4,202 nt of DNA from a virus (Duplodnaviria > Heunggongvirae > Uroviricota > Caudoviricetes), in the IMG/VR virus record IMGVR_UViG_2541047432_000013, positions 1 through 4,202 of that record; one strand, given 5' to 3'. Positions 1 to 4,202 of this stretch are shown piece by piece. Numbering within the stretch: the stretch's first letter is position 1; every line of letters begins with the position of its first letter. The position numbers and the translations under genes were made by a program. The notes under the pieces are model-generated. The model worked only from the letters and a program-made list of their open reading frames with translations, was not told the origin of the DNA and did no database searches.

Positions 1-116
1 GTCTGGCCGGTTCGGATTCGTACCTCGCAGAGGTCTTTCCTCGTTACCAGTGCCGTCACTATGACGGTTAAACAGATGACGATCAGGGCGATTAACATCG
101 CCTTTTGCTGCTTCAT
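1..116 (-). CDS. hokD: Hok/Gef-family type I toxin (small membrane-depolarising peptide); N-terminal 38 codons present, 3' end runs off the window start
   Basis: Minus-strand ATG at 116-114 translates to MKQQKAMLIALIVICLTVIVTALVTRKDLCEVRIRTGQT..., the Hok/Gef signature (hydrophobic TM segment then conserved RKDLCE). It matches HokD/RelF as I recall it; family call is firm, paralog call is from memory. AGGAG lies 9-10 nt upstream of the ATG. Confidence 0.85.
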   Translation of the reverse strand, partial: MKQQKAMLIALIVICLTVIVTALVTRKDLCEVRIRTGQ

Positions 117-173
117 AGCCTGCTTCTCCTTGCCTTTCGGCACGTAAGAGGCTAACCTACATGTGTTCAGCAT
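1..173 (-). CDS. mok-like overlapping regulatory ORF (in-frame 19-codon N-terminal extension of hok), partial
   Basis: In-frame upstream ATG at 173-171 gives MLNTCRLASYVPKGKEKQA before the Hok Met. The MLNTCR start resembles chromosomal Mok proteins (MokC, from memory). GAGG lies 8 nt upstream. No alternative-frame ORF with a start codon overlaps hok. Confidence 0.5.
   Translation of the reverse strand, partial: MLNTCRLASYVPKGKEKQAMKQQKAMLIALIVICLTVIVTALVTRKDLCEVRIRTGQ
130..158 (+). promoter_or_regulatory. Candidate sigma70 promoter for a Sok-like antisense RNA
   Basis: TTGCCT (130-135), 17-bp spacer, TAACCT (153-158) on the plus strand, antisense to the mok translation initiation region. 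The -10 is weak; this is a prediction only. Confidence 0.3.
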
Positions 174-243
174 GGATTGAGCCTCAGATTAATGTTAAGC
201 GTCTTGCAGGACGCGTAATGTTAACTGGGGCTTTTCTCTATCT
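165..243 (+). ncRNA. Predicted Sok-like antisense RNA covering the mok SD and start codon, ending in a terminator-like structure
   Basis: Plus-strand region complementary to the mok SD and ATG. Outer stem GCCTCAG (181-187) pairs with CTGGGGC (225-231) including one G-U pair; inner stem GCGTC/GACGC (199-214); then T-rich tract TTTTCTCTATCT (232-243). Ends are approximate. Confidence 0.3.
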
Positions 244-291
244 GCCGTTGGTGTTCATGCCCGAGGCAGATAGCCTCAAGCACCCGCAGCA

Positions 292-319
292 ATTCTACTT
301 AACTATCCTTTTCCCGCAA
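292..319 (-). promoter_or_regulatory. Candidate promoter for the hok/mok mRNA
   Basis: Minus-strand TTGCGG (319-314), 16-bp spacer, TAGAAT (297-292), about 110 nt upstream of the mok start, consistent with the long leader of hok mRNAs. Prediction only. Confidence 0.3.
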
Positions 320-406
320 ACCGTTTTTATCCCCAGCGGCAAATCGAATACACCACCAGCGCCACCGCCATCGCAATTCCTACCGTTGTGAATGCTTCAG
401 GCCAGG

Positions 407-964
407 TCATTGATTCACCTCCTGCGGCGGTTCTGGTAGCGACATCCAGTGGGTTGCTTGCCTAAGATCATTACCCGGACTAACTGCTATACCTCCGCGC
501 CGGAACGTGCCTCCGAGATAGCGTGCGGAATATATTAATGGCCCAGCCTCGCTATCGATATTCATCGAAATAAGCACGTTCTGGCTCTTTTCAGGCATTC
601 GCTCAGTACAGCTTATCCAGCCATCCAGAGTTATCGGAGATCTGGTTGACGTTTCCGAGATTTCCCGAAAATTGTTGGTTGACGAATTCTTATTTTCCCG
701 AAAGTTTCCGGCCTGAAGCATGGCGACGCGGCAGGCGTTCCAGCCATCAGCATATGTTTTAGTTACACCGTCGAGATGGCAGGTAAGCAAATCCATTTCA
801 TCAGGCACTACCATTGCTATCGGCTCTGCTTCCAGTGATGCCAGCGCGATACGAAACACATTAGCCAGCAGGCTGTCTGAAGACTTGTTATCGTGCGCCG
901 AGTCGCTCAGGAAGCCTGTGATGTATGATTTAATCTCCGCGCGTTCTCTGGTAATAGTGCTCAT
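407..964 (-). CDS. Phage protein with C-terminal DUF551-type domain (function unknown) and a distinct N-terminal region
   Basis: 185-aa ORF, ATG at 964 with AAGGA 8 nt upstream. C-terminus DGWISCTERMPEK...ATHWMSLPEPPQ matches the DUF551 hallmark (THWMPLPEPP) as I recall it. Its start lies 1 nt after the stop of the upstream ORF (TGATATG). Confidence 0.75.
   Translation of the reverse strand: MSTITRERAEIKSYITGFLSDSAHDNKSSDSLLANVFRIALASLEAEPIAMVVPDEMDLLTCHLDGVTKTYADGWNACRVAMLQAGNFRENKNSSTNNFREISETSTRSPITLDGWISCTERMPEKSQNVLISMNIDSEAGPLIYSARYLGGTFRRGGIAVSPGNDLRQATHWMSLPEPPQEVNQ
644..709. repeat. Imperfect 33-bp tandem duplication inside the DUF551 gene, encoding an 11-aa tandem linker repeat
   Basis: Unit 1 (644-676) GGTTGACGTTTCCGAGATTTCCCGAAAATTGTT and unit 2 (677-709) GGTTGACGAATTCTTATTTTCCCGAAAGTTTCC. 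They encode NFRENKNSSTN / NFREISETSTR on the minus strand. Near-palindromic TTTCCCGAAA cores. Confidence 0.7.
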
Positions 965-965
965 A

Positions 966-1184
966 TCAGTTTTCCTTATACGGATTAATTTTATTGTGCA
1001 GTGCGCTGAATGATTCCCATGTCACATCGGTATATAGCTCAATAACTGGTTCAAATGTCCTTCCAATTATCCAGACCAGTAATAGCGGGGATATCGGTAT
1101 CATCAACACTATAAACAGAATGAAAAACAGAAACTCTGTTGTTCTGCTCTTTCGTGGGTAATTTTTTTCTAAATAATGTTTCAT
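966..1184 (-). CDS. Small single-pass membrane protein (72 aa), AT-rich moron-like gene
   Basis: ATG at 1184. One predicted TM helix (FLFFILFIVLMIPISPLLLVWIIG) after a basic N-terminus (KNYPRKSR). About 35% GC by hand count versus roughly 55-60% in the replication genes. Confidence 0.6.
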   Translation of the reverse strand: MKHYLEKNYPRKSRTTEFLFFILFIVLMIPISPLLLVWIIGRTFEPVIELYTDVTWESFSALHNKINPYKEN

Positions 1185-1212
1185 TTCTTACCGCCCTTTC
1201 GGGCGGCCTCCT
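1185..1212 (-). promoter_or_regulatory. SD - GC hairpin - start codon arrangement upstream of the membrane-protein gene
   Basis: Minus strand reads AGGAGG-CCGCCC-GAAA-GGGCGG-TAAGAA-ATG: a perfect 6-bp GC stem with GAAA tetraloop sits between a consensus SD and the ATG. Linear spacing is 22 nt, about 6 nt if the hairpin folds. Confidence 0.45.
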
Positions 1213-1311
1213 GATGTTCTGAGGGTGCAGGAATCCCTCCGGTTAAGGATTTAATAAAAATCGTTTCTGATTTAAATCTTCAGTATTTAGTTGTTAGTTG
1301 GTTTATCGCCT

Positions 1312-1623
1312 TTATGCTTCAGCCTTATTTCGCAACCAGACACAAACCGGGCCATCTTCCGTATCATGAATGGAACCAATAAACCAGCCATCGCCCTCTG
1401 GTCGTTCCGGTTCCCATGCAGAAATATCAGCATCACACGCATCAAGGTCAGCACATCCTTCATCTCTGAAGCAGAGGACGTATTGAAGATTATTTTCCTC
1501 CATCCAGGCGTTAAACTCTTCCGTTGAAATATATTCCCGACCATCACAGAATTTTTCATATTCAGGATGCGTCCAGCAGCCATATTCATTACGTTCCACT
1601 GGCATTTCTTTAATTACGCTCAT
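1312..1623 (-). CDS. Highly acidic small phage protein (103 aa), function unknown
   Basis: ATG at 1623 with GGGGG 3 nt upstream. ATGA overlap with the stop of the upstream ORF. 16 Glu + 9 Asp versus 8 Lys/Arg (hand count), 5 Trp, 6 Cys. Confidence 0.7.
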   Translation of the reverse strand: MSVIKEMPVERNEYGCWTHPEYEKFCDGREYISTEEFNAWMEENNLQYVLCFRDEGCADLDACDADISAWEPERPEGDGWFIGSIHDTEDGPVCVWLRNKAEA

Positions 1624-1808
1624 TTACCCCCCTTATTTAATTTTCTACGACACTTTTTACAATCATCTGGACTTTCGAATGTATCCGGCTCACGCTCATT
1701 GCCAAAATACATCCACCCACCGCAAATACTTGTTATTTCACCTTCAGCAAAATAATGATGTTTTTTCGCCATAAGTGGCCTTGCCCAGCCCGGATTCGTT
1801 TTACTCAC
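1620..1808 (-). CDS. Small Cys/His-containing protein (62 aa), possible zinc ribbon, function unknown
   Basis: GTG start at 1808 preceded by AAGGAGG with a 6-nt spacer. GTGA overlap with the upstream stop. HH at residues 17-18, Cys29 and C50-x-x-C53, basic C-terminal tail. Confidence 0.6.
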   Translation of the reverse strand: MSKTNPGWARPLMAKKHHYFAEGEITSICGGWMYFGNEREPDTFESPDDCKKCRRKLNKGGK

Positions 1809-2161
1809 TTGTTGCCTCCTTTGCGAAGCTCTGCGACTAACTCGTCACATATGTGCGTCAAAGAGCAAAGTTTGATTGCTGGATGTTCGCGCACCATCTC
1901 CACACCCTGCGCCCGCAATTCTGCCAGAAAAGCGTAGGGGTCAGTTTTTTCACTGTGGTACATGGCATCATAGATAATCATTGCAGCGACACCTGCCTGT
2001 CCTGCATCTGTGACGGATATATGCTCAAGGGCTACGGCCATTGCGTGTTTCAACCTCTCATTTTCCACCTCAAGCACCACACGATTAGCCTCCAGCTCTT
2101 CTATGCGTTTTTTTGCTGCTCCCAGCTCAACACGCAGCTCCTGATAGTTAATCTCGCTCAT
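1805..2161 (-). CDS. Coiled-coil phage protein, possibly ead/Ea22-like family
   Basis: ATG at 2161 preceded by GGAGGAAGGAGA. ATGA overlap with the upstream stop. N-terminal heptad-like segment (ELRVELGAAKKRIEELEANRVVLEVENERLKH) then a globular C-terminus. Family resemblance is from memory and weak. Confidence 0.65.
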   Translation of the reverse strand: MSEINYQELRVELGAAKKRIEELEANRVVLEVENERLKHAMAVALEHISVTDAGQAGVAAMIIYDAMYHSEKTDPYAFLAELRAQGVEMVREHPAIKLCSLTHICDELVAELRKGGNK

Positions 2162-2382
2162 TCTCCTTCCTCCCGCACTGCTGTTTTATATGCCCGAAGC
2201 ACATGCGATGTTTTTCCTGACACAGTGCTTCTCAGAAAGAAAATTCCACTGGTGTTTATTACCAGATACGGGTCAGCAAGACGCAGCATATCCAGTATGT
2301 GATTATGTTTTCTTGTTTCCAGCACCGTACTTGAAATAAGCATATGTGACACGGGGCCGAAATCATGATATCTGATTTTCAT
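2158..2382 (-). CDS. Small hypothetical phage protein (74 aa)
   Basis: ATG at 2382, 21 nt after the stop of the winged-helix gene; weak SD (GGGTGA). Its stop overlaps the next start (ATGA). Supported mainly by operon context. Confidence 0.5.
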   Translation of the reverse strand: MKIRYHDFGPVSHMLISSTVLETRKHNHILDMLRLADPYLVINTSGIFFLRSTVSGKTSHVLRAYKTAVREEGE

Positions 2383-2403
2383 ATCATCACCCTGCTGTAA
2401 AAA

Positions 2404-3114
2404 TTACCCGTTATCTCCTGTCGTTATTTTCTGTATGACATCACGATGCTTATTAATTTCCCGCAGCGCGGCGCATAAGCGCTCCCACTTCTGAACCTGA
2501 CCTTTTGCCCGGCGCAGCTCGCGGTTAGCCACATGCAGCGATGGTAAAATCAGACCATCCGGATGCTTTCTGATGAACGACGACTGTGACTGCACTGTGA
2601 CCGCCACACTTTCAGTTTTAATTTCTTCCTGTGTTTCCGCTTCCCGGACTGGTAACGCAACACCTGCCGGCTGAGGAAAGGCTTTACCATCGGTTTCCGT
2701 TACCGATGCAGCTTTCGGCTCTGCCGGTAAATTATCGCCCGGTATGCAGTAACGATATTTACCGTCCTGATTTACGCGAATCAGACGACCTTTGCTGACA
2801 GCCATCGCCAGTGATGAATTCGCCCGGCGGGAGGTAATCCCGAACATTAACGCCAGTTCGTCCGCCGTTTGTGGGCCATGATGTTCAATCGCCTCAGTCA
2901 GCATTTGCGCTGTCACTTTCGGTACCGGTGACACTGGTTCACTTTCACCAGTCTGAGTCAGCCACCACATCGACCCCTTGTTATCCGCTTCACCACGGCG
3001 CTTCAGTTTCCACAGTTCGTTGACAGCATCTTCGCGGCTGATTCCAAGGCGCGATGCCACTACCTGTGAAGAGGCTTTTTTCAGTGCTTTCAGTGCGTCA
3101 AATACGGTTTCCAT
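2404..3114 (-). CDS. Phage protein with two tandem winged-helix-like (MarR-like) units and a C-terminal coiled-coil; possibly DUF1627-type
   Basis: True start is taken as ATG 3114 (GGAGG 8 nt upstream), not the in-frame TTG at 3132 used by the ORF track. Two similar units: ...[29 protein letters not shown]... and ...[32 protein letters not shown].... Occupies the position of ren in lambda. Confidence 0.75.
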
Positions 3115-3147
3115 TAATATTTCCTCCGACAAAATCGTTTCTCAGAT

Positions 3148-3810
3148 TCAAATAAAACCAGCTGCCTTCCGGCGTTCGTATTCCTGTTTCAGCCGTTCAA
3201 TTGGCGTTGGCCCTTGCGGGTGTTTCGCCCCTTCCAGTTGTCGTCGCACTGGCGGAACACTCATCCCGTTACCAACATGCTTTGCCCATTTCGTCAGTTG
3301 CCGTTCCGCAAGTCGTTTTAACTCACCTTGCGTCATCTGGCGCTCAATCCCTCTGGTACGCATTTCGAGGCAGATGTGGTACAGCACAGGCTGTGGCCAC
3401 GGGTATTTATCACTCCCGTCGTATCGCCAGGATTCATTGCGCCAGCGCCGGTACTCTTCCATCACGGCATCCACCGTAAGACCAAATGGATTTGCCCCAC
3501 TCTCCGAAATCAGCGCAACAAACTCAGCCAGGTCCGGGGGCCACGTTTCACCCGCCCGGCAGCGGTCCATGCACTGACGGCACACCAGACGGATTTGCTG
3601 TTCAGTCATCGCACCAATCTGGGCAATCCAGAGCTTCGAAGGTGCGGCCCCGTTCTTCTGAGTCCAGCGGTTCGAATACACCTCCCCCATGAGCTCCCAC
3701 AGCTTCCAGGCCGTTTCCGTTGCTGATAAATCCGTTGTCACGTTCCCACTGTTCGCGTGCAGCCCGGATTTCCTGAACTGCCCGTGATGCCGTGCCACCT
3801 GATGCTGCAT
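3148..3810 (-). CDS. Lambda P-like replication protein (replicative helicase loader); start codon uncertain
   Basis: Resembles lambda P as I recall it: TWPPDLAEFVALI versus PFLPSPGQFVAWC, and YPWPQPVLYHICLEMRTRGIERQMTQGELKRLAERQL versus YPWKSNAHYWLVTNLYQNMRANALTDAELRRKAADEL. ATG 3810 has a G-rich SD; alternative ATG at 3690 has GGGAG 3 nt upstream. Confidence 0.8.
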   Translation of the reverse strand: MQHQVARHHGQFRKSGLHANSGNVTTDLSATETAWKLWELMGEVYSNRWTQKNGAAPSKLWIAQIGAMTEQQIRLVCRQCMDRCRAGETWPPDLAEFVALISESGANPFGLTVDAVMEEYRRWRNESWRYDGSDKYPWPQPVLYHICLEMRTRGIERQMTQGELKRLAERQLTKWAKHVGNGMSVPPVRRQLEGAKHPQGPTPIERLKQEYERRKAAGFI

Positions 3811-4195
3811 GGCTTCCCCCCTTGCTGACTGGTTTTACCTGTGCCCTGACGTGCTGCACGTGGCGGGCAAATTTCTGCTCCCACTGAACCTGCGTGAAAA
3901 CCTTCCCCTCCGCCATCCAGTAATCCCGGAATGCGGCAAGCTCAGCAGGTGTAAATTCCGGCTCAGGCAGAGCCATACCCCACACTGCTGCCCGTTGTCG
4001 AAAATCCGGCGACGGCTGCCAGACAGTAGTCATCGAAAATTTCCCGATCGGTTCGCTCAGGCCGTCCAGGTATTCAGGTTCGGCTGTCTGCAACGGCGCG
4101 TCATTCGACTCACTGGTCGTAGTACTCTCGCGCGCGTTATGTGTGGGGTTTAATTCTTTATCTGTATCTGTATCTGTCGTGATTTGTCGTGACAT
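3602..4195 (-). CDS. DnaT-domain replication-initiator-like protein (phi80/Gifsy-type replication protein); 5' end may extend beyond the window
   Basis: GKFSMTTVWQPSPDFRQRAAVWGMALPEPEFTPAELAAFRDYWMAEGKVFTQVQWEQKFARHV matches the E. coli DnaT C-terminal domain ([29 protein letters not shown]...[23 protein letters not shown], recalled). Frame is open from ATG 4195 to the window end, so the true start cannot be fixed. Confidence 0.8.
   Translation of the reverse strand: MSRQITTDTDTDKELNPTHNARESTTTSESNDAPLQTAEPEYLDGLSEPIGKFSMTTVWQPSPDFRQRAAVWGMALPEPEFTPAELAAFRDYWMAEGKVFTQVQWEQKFARHVQHVRAQVKPVSKGGSHAASGGTASRAVQEIRAAREQWERDNGFISNGNGLEAVGAHGGGVFEPLDSEERGRTFEALDCPDWCDD
4160..4192. repeat. Short tandem repeats at the 5' end of the DnaT-like ORF
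   Basis: ATCTGT x3 (4160-4177) followed by GTCGTGA x2 at 10-bp spacing (4176-4182, 4186-4192). Encodes (TD)3 on the minus strand. Confidence 0.6.
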
Positions 4196-4202
4196 ATGCG
4201 TG

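Follow-up and report, generated by a model that had tools for sequence, protein, structure and literature searches.

A Shine-Dalgarno-hairpin cassette preceding unrelated genes in lambdoid prophages: a candidate split ribosome-binding site

Split ribosome-binding sites (RBS) are known in few cases, chiefly genes 38 and 25 of bacteriophage T4. In these genes a structure between the Shine-Dalgarno (SD) sequence and the AUG shortens their spacing from 22 to 5 nucleotides (nt) and from 27 to 11 nt, respectively, mutations that destabilise the structure lower initiation, and the arrangement is found only in close T-even phages (PMC3014915). Here we analyse an element of similar layout in a 4,202-nt stretch of DNA from a virus of the Caudoviricetes (positions 1 to 4,202 of IMG/VR record IMGVR_UViG_2541047432_000013), referred to as the window throughout, where AGGAGG, a GC-rich hairpin with a GAAA loop and an AUG follow one another on the minus strand at the start of a gene of the DUF4014 family. 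The reading we favour, with a probability of roughly 0.6, is that the element is a portable intercistronic translation-initiation cassette which acts as a split RBS in lambdoid prophages of the Rac/Qin-like and Stx types, and which would serve as a constitutive initiation adaptor rather than as a switch. It would then add a further example, from temperate phages, to the few split sites described; the split-RBS mechanism itself is already known, and the cassette opens no long-standing question. No description of the element came up when the literature was searched for the hairpin sequence, DUF4014 and split RBS of lambdoid phages.

The leader of T4 gene 38 reads AAGGAG-AGGGGC-UUCG-GCCCUU-CUAAAU-AUG and folds in our calculations at -16.7 kcal/mol; its counterpart in the window reads AGGAGG-CCGCCC-GAAA-GGGCGG-UAAGAA-AUG. 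Since this layout matches a characterised split site, it is very probable that the hairpin places the SD within working reach of the start codon. The working core would consist of AGGAGG, a stable GAAA-capped hairpin, 6-11 unstructured A/U-rich nt and the AUG. The constitutively folded hairpin would loop out 16 nt and leave the SD about 6 nt plus the width of the helix base away from the AUG, and the 30S subunit could then bind SD and start codon as at an ordinary site. The ribosome would thus use the SD across the hairpin, and the hairpin would enhance initiation rather than merely be tolerated. Because such a unit is self-contained, recombination could place it before any gene.

Anatomy and folding of the intergenic region

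All coordinates refer to the window, and minus-strand segments written with descending numbers are given in their direction of reading. The gap begins after the stop codon UAA (1314-1312, minus strand) of the upstream gene, a reading frame of 103 amino acids (aa) at 1312..1623 on the minus strand that was taken from the list of open reading frames (ORFs), has no Pfam family and is annotated as a hypothetical protein in Escherichia coli O26 11368. Read from the sequence, the gap extends over 127 nt (1311-1185, minus strand) to the AUG at 1184-1182 of the downstream gene (966..1184, minus strand). The latter encodes 72 aa with a hydrophobic central segment and is assigned to DUF4014 both by Pfam (PF13198, E = 1e-24) and by the RefSeq family annotation; the preliminary description of this DNA had placed a 127-nt gap upstream of a membrane-protein gene. 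The SD sequence AGGAGG (1212-1207, minus strand) directly adjoins hairpin 1 (1191..1206, minus strand), which consists of CCGCCC (1206-1201), the loop GAAA (1200-1197) and GGGCGG (1196-1191). The stem is separated from the AUG by the spacer UAAGAA (1185..1190, minus strand), which contains no SD-like tetramer. In the linear sequence AGGAGG ends 22 nt before the AUG, and folding of hairpin 1 reduces this spacing to 6 nt. The succession of AGGAGG, 6-bp GC stem, GAAA loop, 6 nt and ATG on the minus strand can be read directly, and it bears out the earlier statement that the SD lies 22 nt from the start when unfolded and at a normal distance when folded.

The folding energy of hairpin 1 is -15.5 kcal/mol (-15.5 to -16.4 kcal/mol for the window layout), well below that of shuffled sequence (z = -3.3 in 31 nt and z = -4.9 in 41 nt), so that the energy calculation proposed earlier comes out in favour of the hairpin. 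In the partition function all pairs of hairpin 1 have an ensemble probability of 1.0, no competing partner is predicted for either of its arms, and little pairing is predicted for the spacer and AUG. Folding also closes the hairpin with a seventh pair, the wobble G1207·U1190, by which the last G of the SD is paired. The preliminary description saw structure-dependent translational control in this arrangement. A role of the hairpin in initiation is likely; a regulated switch between folded and unfolded states finds no support, and we consider it unlikely because the C(GAAA)G-capped hairpin, at about -15.5 kcal/mol and with pair probabilities of 1.0, is too stable for it and no rival pairing of its arms is predicted.

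The SD-hairpin-AUG architecture exceeds chance. A strict scan of about 1.5 Mb of mostly lambdoid prophage DNA, in which an SD, a perfect GC-rich hairpin, 4-11 nt and the start of an ORF of at least 50 aa were required, returned only the cassette and one other instance. The only match to Rfam 15 that overlaps the region is a chance-level hit to G-CSF_SLDE (E = 0.9). The 3' side of the stem is followed by UAAGAAAUG, that is, by no U-tract, and terminator-like sites were found on neither strand at 1100-1400 of the window nor in the related locus L003, as expected from the earlier remark that neither hairpin of the gap is followed by a U-tract. A scan limited to the consensus, with -35 and -10 hexamers 16-18 nt apart, gave no sigma-70 promoter-like sites at 1100-1400 or at 2380-2680 of L003. 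A promoter or an intrinsic terminator was rejected on these grounds as an identity for the element. Two groups of prophage small RNAs (sRNAs) were also set aside: AgvB and AsxR are encoded downstream of PR' and have terminators (PMC4104026), and the Pas sRNAs lie near the Q/lysis region, in either case at another locus.

Conservation, start-codon register and exchange with a near SD

Conservation was assessed in 108 distinct 222-nt contexts obtained from 293 hits. GGAGG is intact in 107 of them and the GAAA loop is present in 105, while the 648 stem cells comprise 601 Watson-Crick pairs, 34 G·U pairs and 13 mismatches; over the 61 versions of the long form described below, 97% of hairpin 1 cells are paired. 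Sequence conservation ends directly after GGGCGG-UA. The 24-nt SD-hairpin module has a mean identity of about 97-98% (lowest pair 92%), compared with about 78% DNA identity for the DUF4014 genes, a uniformity that reflects strong constraint, recombinational homogenisation, or both. Substitutions in the two arms differ in kind. Changes of C to U in the 5' arm, by which pairing is kept as G·U, occupy 34 cells at four positions and are frequent variants; changes of G to A in the 3' arm, which break the pairing, occupy five cells and are all rare. As both changes belong to one mutational class on double-stranded DNA, the asymmetry points to an RNA helix made from this strand.

The distance to the start codon is held within narrow limits. 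All annotated contexts examined lie between genes of the same strand and have the start codon 6-11 nt past the stem. Across the family there are 13 spacer types of 6-11 nt, and the linear distance from SD to AUG, made up of the 16-nt hairpin and the spacer, is 22-27 nt, beyond the roughly 15 nt at which an SD counts as too distant. The 6-11 nt that remain after folding fall within the 5-11 nt of the T4 sites. Twelve of the spacer types contain none of GGAG, GAGG and AGGA, the exception being the version in front of the Q antiterminator gene (UGGAGAUAAUA).

The cassette is often missing from homologues of the DUF4014 gene with 47-80% identity, among them 933W L0067, epsilon34 gp27, ES18 gp39, D6 orf103 and several IMG/VR contigs; in these the gene abuts its upstream neighbour and GGAG or GGGGGAG stands 5-6 nt before the start. 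The pattern is therefore that a gene with the hairpin has its only SD at least 22 nt away and a gene without it has an SD at normal distance, which supports the view that SD plus hairpin may be the functional equivalent of a near SD. The same homologues bear on another point. The preliminary description had attached the proposed control to this gene, asked for conservation of the stem and named homologues with the gene but no hairpin as a refutation. The stem is strongly kept in copies of the cassette and is missing from other DUF4014 homologues, many of which keep the gene with a near GGAG, so that the refuting observation has been made. Retention of the gene without the hairpin argues against gene-specific regulation, and so does the occurrence of the cassette before at least six unrelated gene families. 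For DUF7167, a second family served by the cassette, the scan for homologues lacking it gave only 100%-identical genes and was uninformative; it did bring out the deletion variant of L230 and L263 described below. The fixed abutment of the hairpin to an invariant SD, its fixed distance from the start and the strand-asymmetric substitutions favour a split RBS over the other explanations considered below.

Long form, short form and the competing explanations

The cassette occurs in two forms. The long form, of which 61 distinct versions were aligned, measures about 100 nt and comprises an AU-rich part, AUCCUUAACC, hairpin 2, a linker, the SD, hairpin 1 and the spacer. In the window the AU-rich 5' part lies at 1256..1291 on the minus strand; it belongs to a type II variant (ACUAAAUACUGAAGAUUUAAAUCAGAAACGAUUUUU), carries no promoter-like site and, as the alignment shows, falls into two sequence types that are more variable than the core. 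The conserved core (1189..1255, minus strand) contains AUUAAAUCCUUAACC, hairpin 2, the linker, the SD, hairpin 1 and UA, and is present in all long-form copies. The short form measures 33-38 nt and consists of the upstream UAA, UG, UCAGGAGG, hairpin 1, the spacer and the AUG (L139, L140, L002:1469, L179 and others). In the short form the 5' edge of the minimal module is the SD itself (UCAGGAGG...), just after the stop codon. Since the same downstream genes are found behind both forms, SD and hairpin 1 together make up the minimal functional unit.

Hairpin 2 is dispensable, as the short form lacks it. Its arms GAGGG (1239-1235) and CCCUC (1225-1221) enclose a 9-nt loop (1221..1239 in all, minus strand); the GAGGG-N9-CCCTC structure reported earlier is therefore present, at 1239-1221 rather than at 1223-1241. 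The sequence is nearly invariant and shows no covariation, and several versions have one- or two-nt insertions or deletions in the loop. On its own hairpin 2 folds at -7.2 kcal/mol (z = -0.8), and 42 of 200 shuffles are as good, so here the energy calculation finds nothing beyond shuffled sequence. A small ORF within the cassette, hinted at by three linker differences spaced 3 nt apart, was tried and rejected: no frame has a canonical start, the common C to U stem variant creates UGA, a change of GAA to UAA closes another frame, and the loop of hairpin 2 tolerates the insertions and deletions just mentioned.

A different role for hairpin 1 would be in mRNA stability, processing or insulation, with the A/U-rich spacer driving initiation and AGGAGG serving at most as a standby site. 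Such a hairpin could stop 3'-5' exonucleases before they reach the upstream segment, could shield the 5' end produced when an endonuclease cuts the AU-rich part, or could keep the start region unstructured in the manner of a clamp. A very stable tetraloop-capped stem without a U-tract would suit these functions, as would the upstream AU-rich segment of the long form, a potential RNase E target, the spacer and AUG predicted to be largely single-stranded, and the survival of ORFs behind rare copies that have no intact SD. A pure stability element would have no use for a register, yet the hairpin always stands 6-11 nt before a start and abuts a near-invariant GGAGG; moreover, the minimal module starts exactly at the SD, and homologues without the cassette replace the whole unit by a near SD. 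Taken jointly, we regard the stability variants as unlikely.

The long leader offers the only hint of modulation, a predicted pairing of UCCU with the AGGA of the SD. A UCCU motif resembling an anti-SD sequence lies at 1246..1249 on the minus strand and is predicted to pair weakly with the SD; a second one (1229..1232, minus strand) is in the loop of hairpin 2. In the RNAalifold consensus columns 50-53 pair with columns 88-91 as a 4-bp UCCU:AGGA helix without covariation, and the predicted probability that the SD is unpaired amounts to 0.03-0.38 in long contexts versus 0.65-0.99 in the short context. In an SD-sequestering riboregulator or RNA thermometer the SD or AUG would be paired in a metastable structure that opens on a signal. 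Here SD and AUG lie outside hairpin 1, which is too stable to melt, and these weak 4-bp helices, which the short form does not have, are the sole SD-masking helices predicted. The long leader as a whole holds two SD-like blocks (including GGAGGG) and two or three anti-SD-like blocks (UCCU, CCCUC) that are predicted to compete for the SD. One UCCU forms part of AAUCCUUAAC, which has UCCUUA in common with the 3' end of 16S rRNA, and a common C/U polymorphism at 1231 (AUUCCUG versus AUUUCUG) alters one UCCU motif.

These features would also fit a common translational operator, where a phage or host RNA-binding protein or an sRNA recognises the invariant C(GAAA)G hairpin beside the SD and co-regulates accessory genes, much like the RegA or coat-protein operators, with UCCU adding masking of the SD. 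The sequence of stem and loop, beyond their structure, is nearly invariant over the 108 contexts, the module is far better conserved than the genes behind it, several copies occur per genome, and SD-UCCU pairing is predicted for the long form. No candidate binding protein was identified, however, and in the phage regions scanned the hairpin sequence was found nowhere outside the cassette, promoter-proximal positions near early promoters included. Recent recombinational spread would explain the uniformity equally well, the masking helices are only 4 bp long and no Rfam family was matched. We think that an operator of this kind is quite improbable.

The split-RBS reading itself has several points to answer. 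The predicted SD-UCCU pairing of the long form would lower rather than raise initiation. The 34 and five cells from which the arm asymmetry was derived include copies of shared ancestry and are phylogenetically non-independent. Among the 61 versions there are no compensatory double changes at any base pair, and the shuffle controls are not exceeded; covariation is absent because the element is too uniform, and a near-invariant stem could reflect recent spread, gene conversion or sequence-specific recognition in place of selection for pairing. Intact ORFs still follow a few copies with a damaged SD or stem, such as AGGAAG in L273 or the G·G mismatch of the L004 type. In two IMG/VR loci (L230 and L263) a deletion (GGGGAUCCCUCAGGCCCGAAAGGGCGGUAGUGAAAUG) removes AGGAGG together with half of the 5' arm and leaves the downstream ORF intact. 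Finally, A/U-rich spacers alone can support some SD-independent initiation. The deletion derivative in L230 and L263 lies about 40 nt upstream of the start of a DUF7167 gene.

Some further variants of the cassette are recorded here. In Escherichia phage Rac MN652886 (L226, 2001-2080) and in L109 the start codon of the DUF7167 gene is mutated to AUA, and an in-frame AUG arises 51 nt upstream through a G in the hairpin 2 loop (GGGAUGCCUG). In the MN652886 record this upstream AUG is annotated as the start of the coding sequence, and the resulting ORF reads through the SD and hairpin 1. In long forms of type I (L003, 2470-2500, and its equivalents) different upstream genes end inside CUGAAUAAUUAAAUUUAG, mostly at GAA-UAA, which places the recombination joint on the 5' side of the cassette among the final codons of the gene before it. 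The CUGAAUAAUUAAAUUUAG block can fold into a small hairpin, CUGAAU-AAUUAA-AUU(U/C)AG, where the U/C variation keeps the pairing with G. A universal adaptor whose 5' end would supply stops in all three frames was considered and rejected, as the upstream genes mostly share the GAA-UAA end. Just past the upstream stop codon of the window and outside the core there is a C/A-rich stretch, AAACCAACUAACAACUAAAUAC (1282-1305, minus strand), which resembles the CA-rich motifs targeted by GcvB-type sRNAs. The consensus quoted for these sRNAs, CACAACA (PMC4104026), has no exact match in the AAACCAACUAACAACUAAAUAC region.

Distribution, genomic setting and comparison with known systems

A sequence identical to the window occurs within a Rac/Qin-like lambdoid prophage, both in E. 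coli O26:H11 11368 and in many O157 strains. In O26 the gap is preceded by genes for a cro-like regulator, YdaT, O-like and DnaC-like replication proteins, DUF1627, a DNA-binding protein and two hypothetical proteins, and followed by DUF4014, DUF551 and hok/sok and later by DUF968, RusA and the Q antiterminator; the cassette thus belongs to the early-right ("nin-like") operon and is oriented in its sense direction. The six genes from 2158-2382 to 407-964 are otherwise tightly packed, with a 4-nt overlap (ATGA type) or a single nt at each remaining junction, so that the 127-nt gap stands out as their one sizeable non-coding interval. These tight junctions are at 1620-1623, 1805-1808, 2158-2161 and 964-966 and imply translational coupling.

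Of 5426 complete E. coli genomes, 2655 have a match to the core, at up to seven places each and with roughly 4,700 copies in all, and the cassette occurs in more than 120 IMG/VR contigs. Core matches of 94-97% identity (query positions 66-132) were obtained in phage records with unrelated flanking genes, including Stx, Rac and other coliphage records, which suggests that the core (1255-1189) is a unit moving independently of its neighbours. A scan for the pattern of linker and SD in one genome per species, over 185,579 species, returned Shigella flexneri only, besides chance hits, and the cassette was found essentially only in Escherichia, Shigella and phages of these genera, apart from a single weak and partial match to an uncultured phage. 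The record PP818812.1, "Actinobacillus phage vB_Apl-pPE4", carries an A. pleuropneumoniae label; at positions 11347-11421 and 12344-12559 it has the cassette at 96% identity and a DUF4014 gene with 76% amino-acid identity, and either its host label or the origin of the sequence looks doubtful.

The genes preceded by the cassette fall into at least six unrelated groups: DUF4014, DUF7167, DUF551-containing proteins of 135-239 aa, the Q antiterminator (Phage_antitermQ), a 43-aa ORF, and proteins of 158-196 aa without a family. One might see in the cassette a mobile "translation regulon tag" that has spread by recombination among co-resident prophages and puts DUF4014, DUF7167, DUF551, Q and other genes under one post-transcriptional regulator recognising the invariant AGGAGG-C(GAAA)G hairpin, with repeats of UCCU, GGAGGG and CCCUC tuning the access of ribosomes; to this idea we give little credence. 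Alternatively, only the history of the DNA may be involved, the cassette being a recombination "linker" homogenised by exchange whose layout merely supplies some RBS. This is consistent with the observations that the similarity between otherwise different phages begins or ends at the cassette edges, that differing upstream and downstream genes are joined by it, and that it is essentially confined to Escherichia and Shigella. It leaves unexplained why a perfect SD and a perfect GC-rich hairpin are joined without a gap and set at a constant distance from the start, why C to U changes are tolerated over G to A changes, and why the geometry of T4 gene 38 is matched exactly. As a sole explanation we think it, too, quite improbable; it is nonetheless compatible with a split RBS, as a functional cassette can double as a recombination joint.

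If the split-RBS reading is correct, the cassette is unusually widespread for such a site, as roughly one in two complete E. coli genomes has a match, O157 and O26 strains that bear Stx phages among them, and as it serves many different genes. Gene finders and RBS predictors that expect an SD at 5-10 nt would then mis-score the starts of cassette genes. The cassette also marks a recurrent recombination joint in the mosaic genomes of lambdoid phages, and as a natural, compact and context-insulating initiation module it could be of use in synthetic biology.

Two further features of the window deserve mention. Its one real Rfam hit, a strong match at 111-285 on the minus strand (113.5 bits, E = 3e-26), is to sok, the antitoxin RNA of a hok/sok type I toxin-antitoxin locus; comparison with the O26 annotation puts the beginning of the hok coding sequence near 116, from where it continues beyond the left end of the window. 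The DUF4014 gene contains a run of seven A residues at 1162-1168 on the minus strand (codons 6-8). Many related loci (for example L170-L175, L179-L198, L066 and L094) have six A residues instead and their frame is broken just after the start; with its reading A AAA AAU, this allele would regain the frame by a -1 slip. It could represent a homopolymer sequencing error, pseudogenisation or slippage-dependent expression.

Mosaic lambdoid phages have conserved boundary or linker sequences at the junctions of their modules, and the cassette resembles these in being a short conserved intergenic segment where the similarity between phages begins and ends. It differs from them in its defined anatomy of SD, hairpin and fixed distance to the AUG, which suggests a function at the level of RNA. 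The hairpin of the cassette shares with the boxB element of phage lambda a short GC stem, a purine-rich loop of the GNRA type and a location in an early lambdoid operon. In contrast to a nut site, the cassette is fused to an SD, lies far from early promoters and stands directly before start codons. A nut/boxB-like site was accordingly rejected: no boxA-like CGCUCUUA was found in the 60 nt upstream, as read from the window and from the long-form alignment, and the cassette is located several genes downstream of the replication genes.

In the thrS leader of E. coli, as cited in PMC7297116, the ribosome-binding region is split by a hairpin and elements on either side are bound by the 30S subunit, as proposed here. 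The thrS hairpin differs in its place, as it lies upstream of a normally spaced SD and parts this SD from an upstream single-stranded enhancer, and in its function as an operator bound by ThrRS, whereas the cassette has no known binder. At the junction of T4 genes 26 and 25 a hairpin shortens the spacing before gene 25 and distant relatives keep the gene without the hairpin, as do some DUF4014 homologues; there the residual spacing is longer, the structure is another one, a single junction is concerned, and the site has been validated by lacZ fusions and dimethyl sulfate probing.

The closest counterpart is T4 gene 38. There, as in the cassette, the SD abuts a GC-rich stem of 6-8 bp with an extra-stable tetraloop in an intercistronic position, and the T4 site and that of the window share a linear SD-AUG distance of 22 nt, 6 nt past the stem and a folding energy of about -16 kcal/mol. 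The T4 site has a UUCG loop in place of GAAA and another stem sequence, and it serves a single gene, whereas the cassette serves at least six families and occurs in several copies per genome. It is also supported by experiment, and the cassette by sequence and predicted folding. As the two share no sequence homology, their likeness suggests convergence on one geometry.

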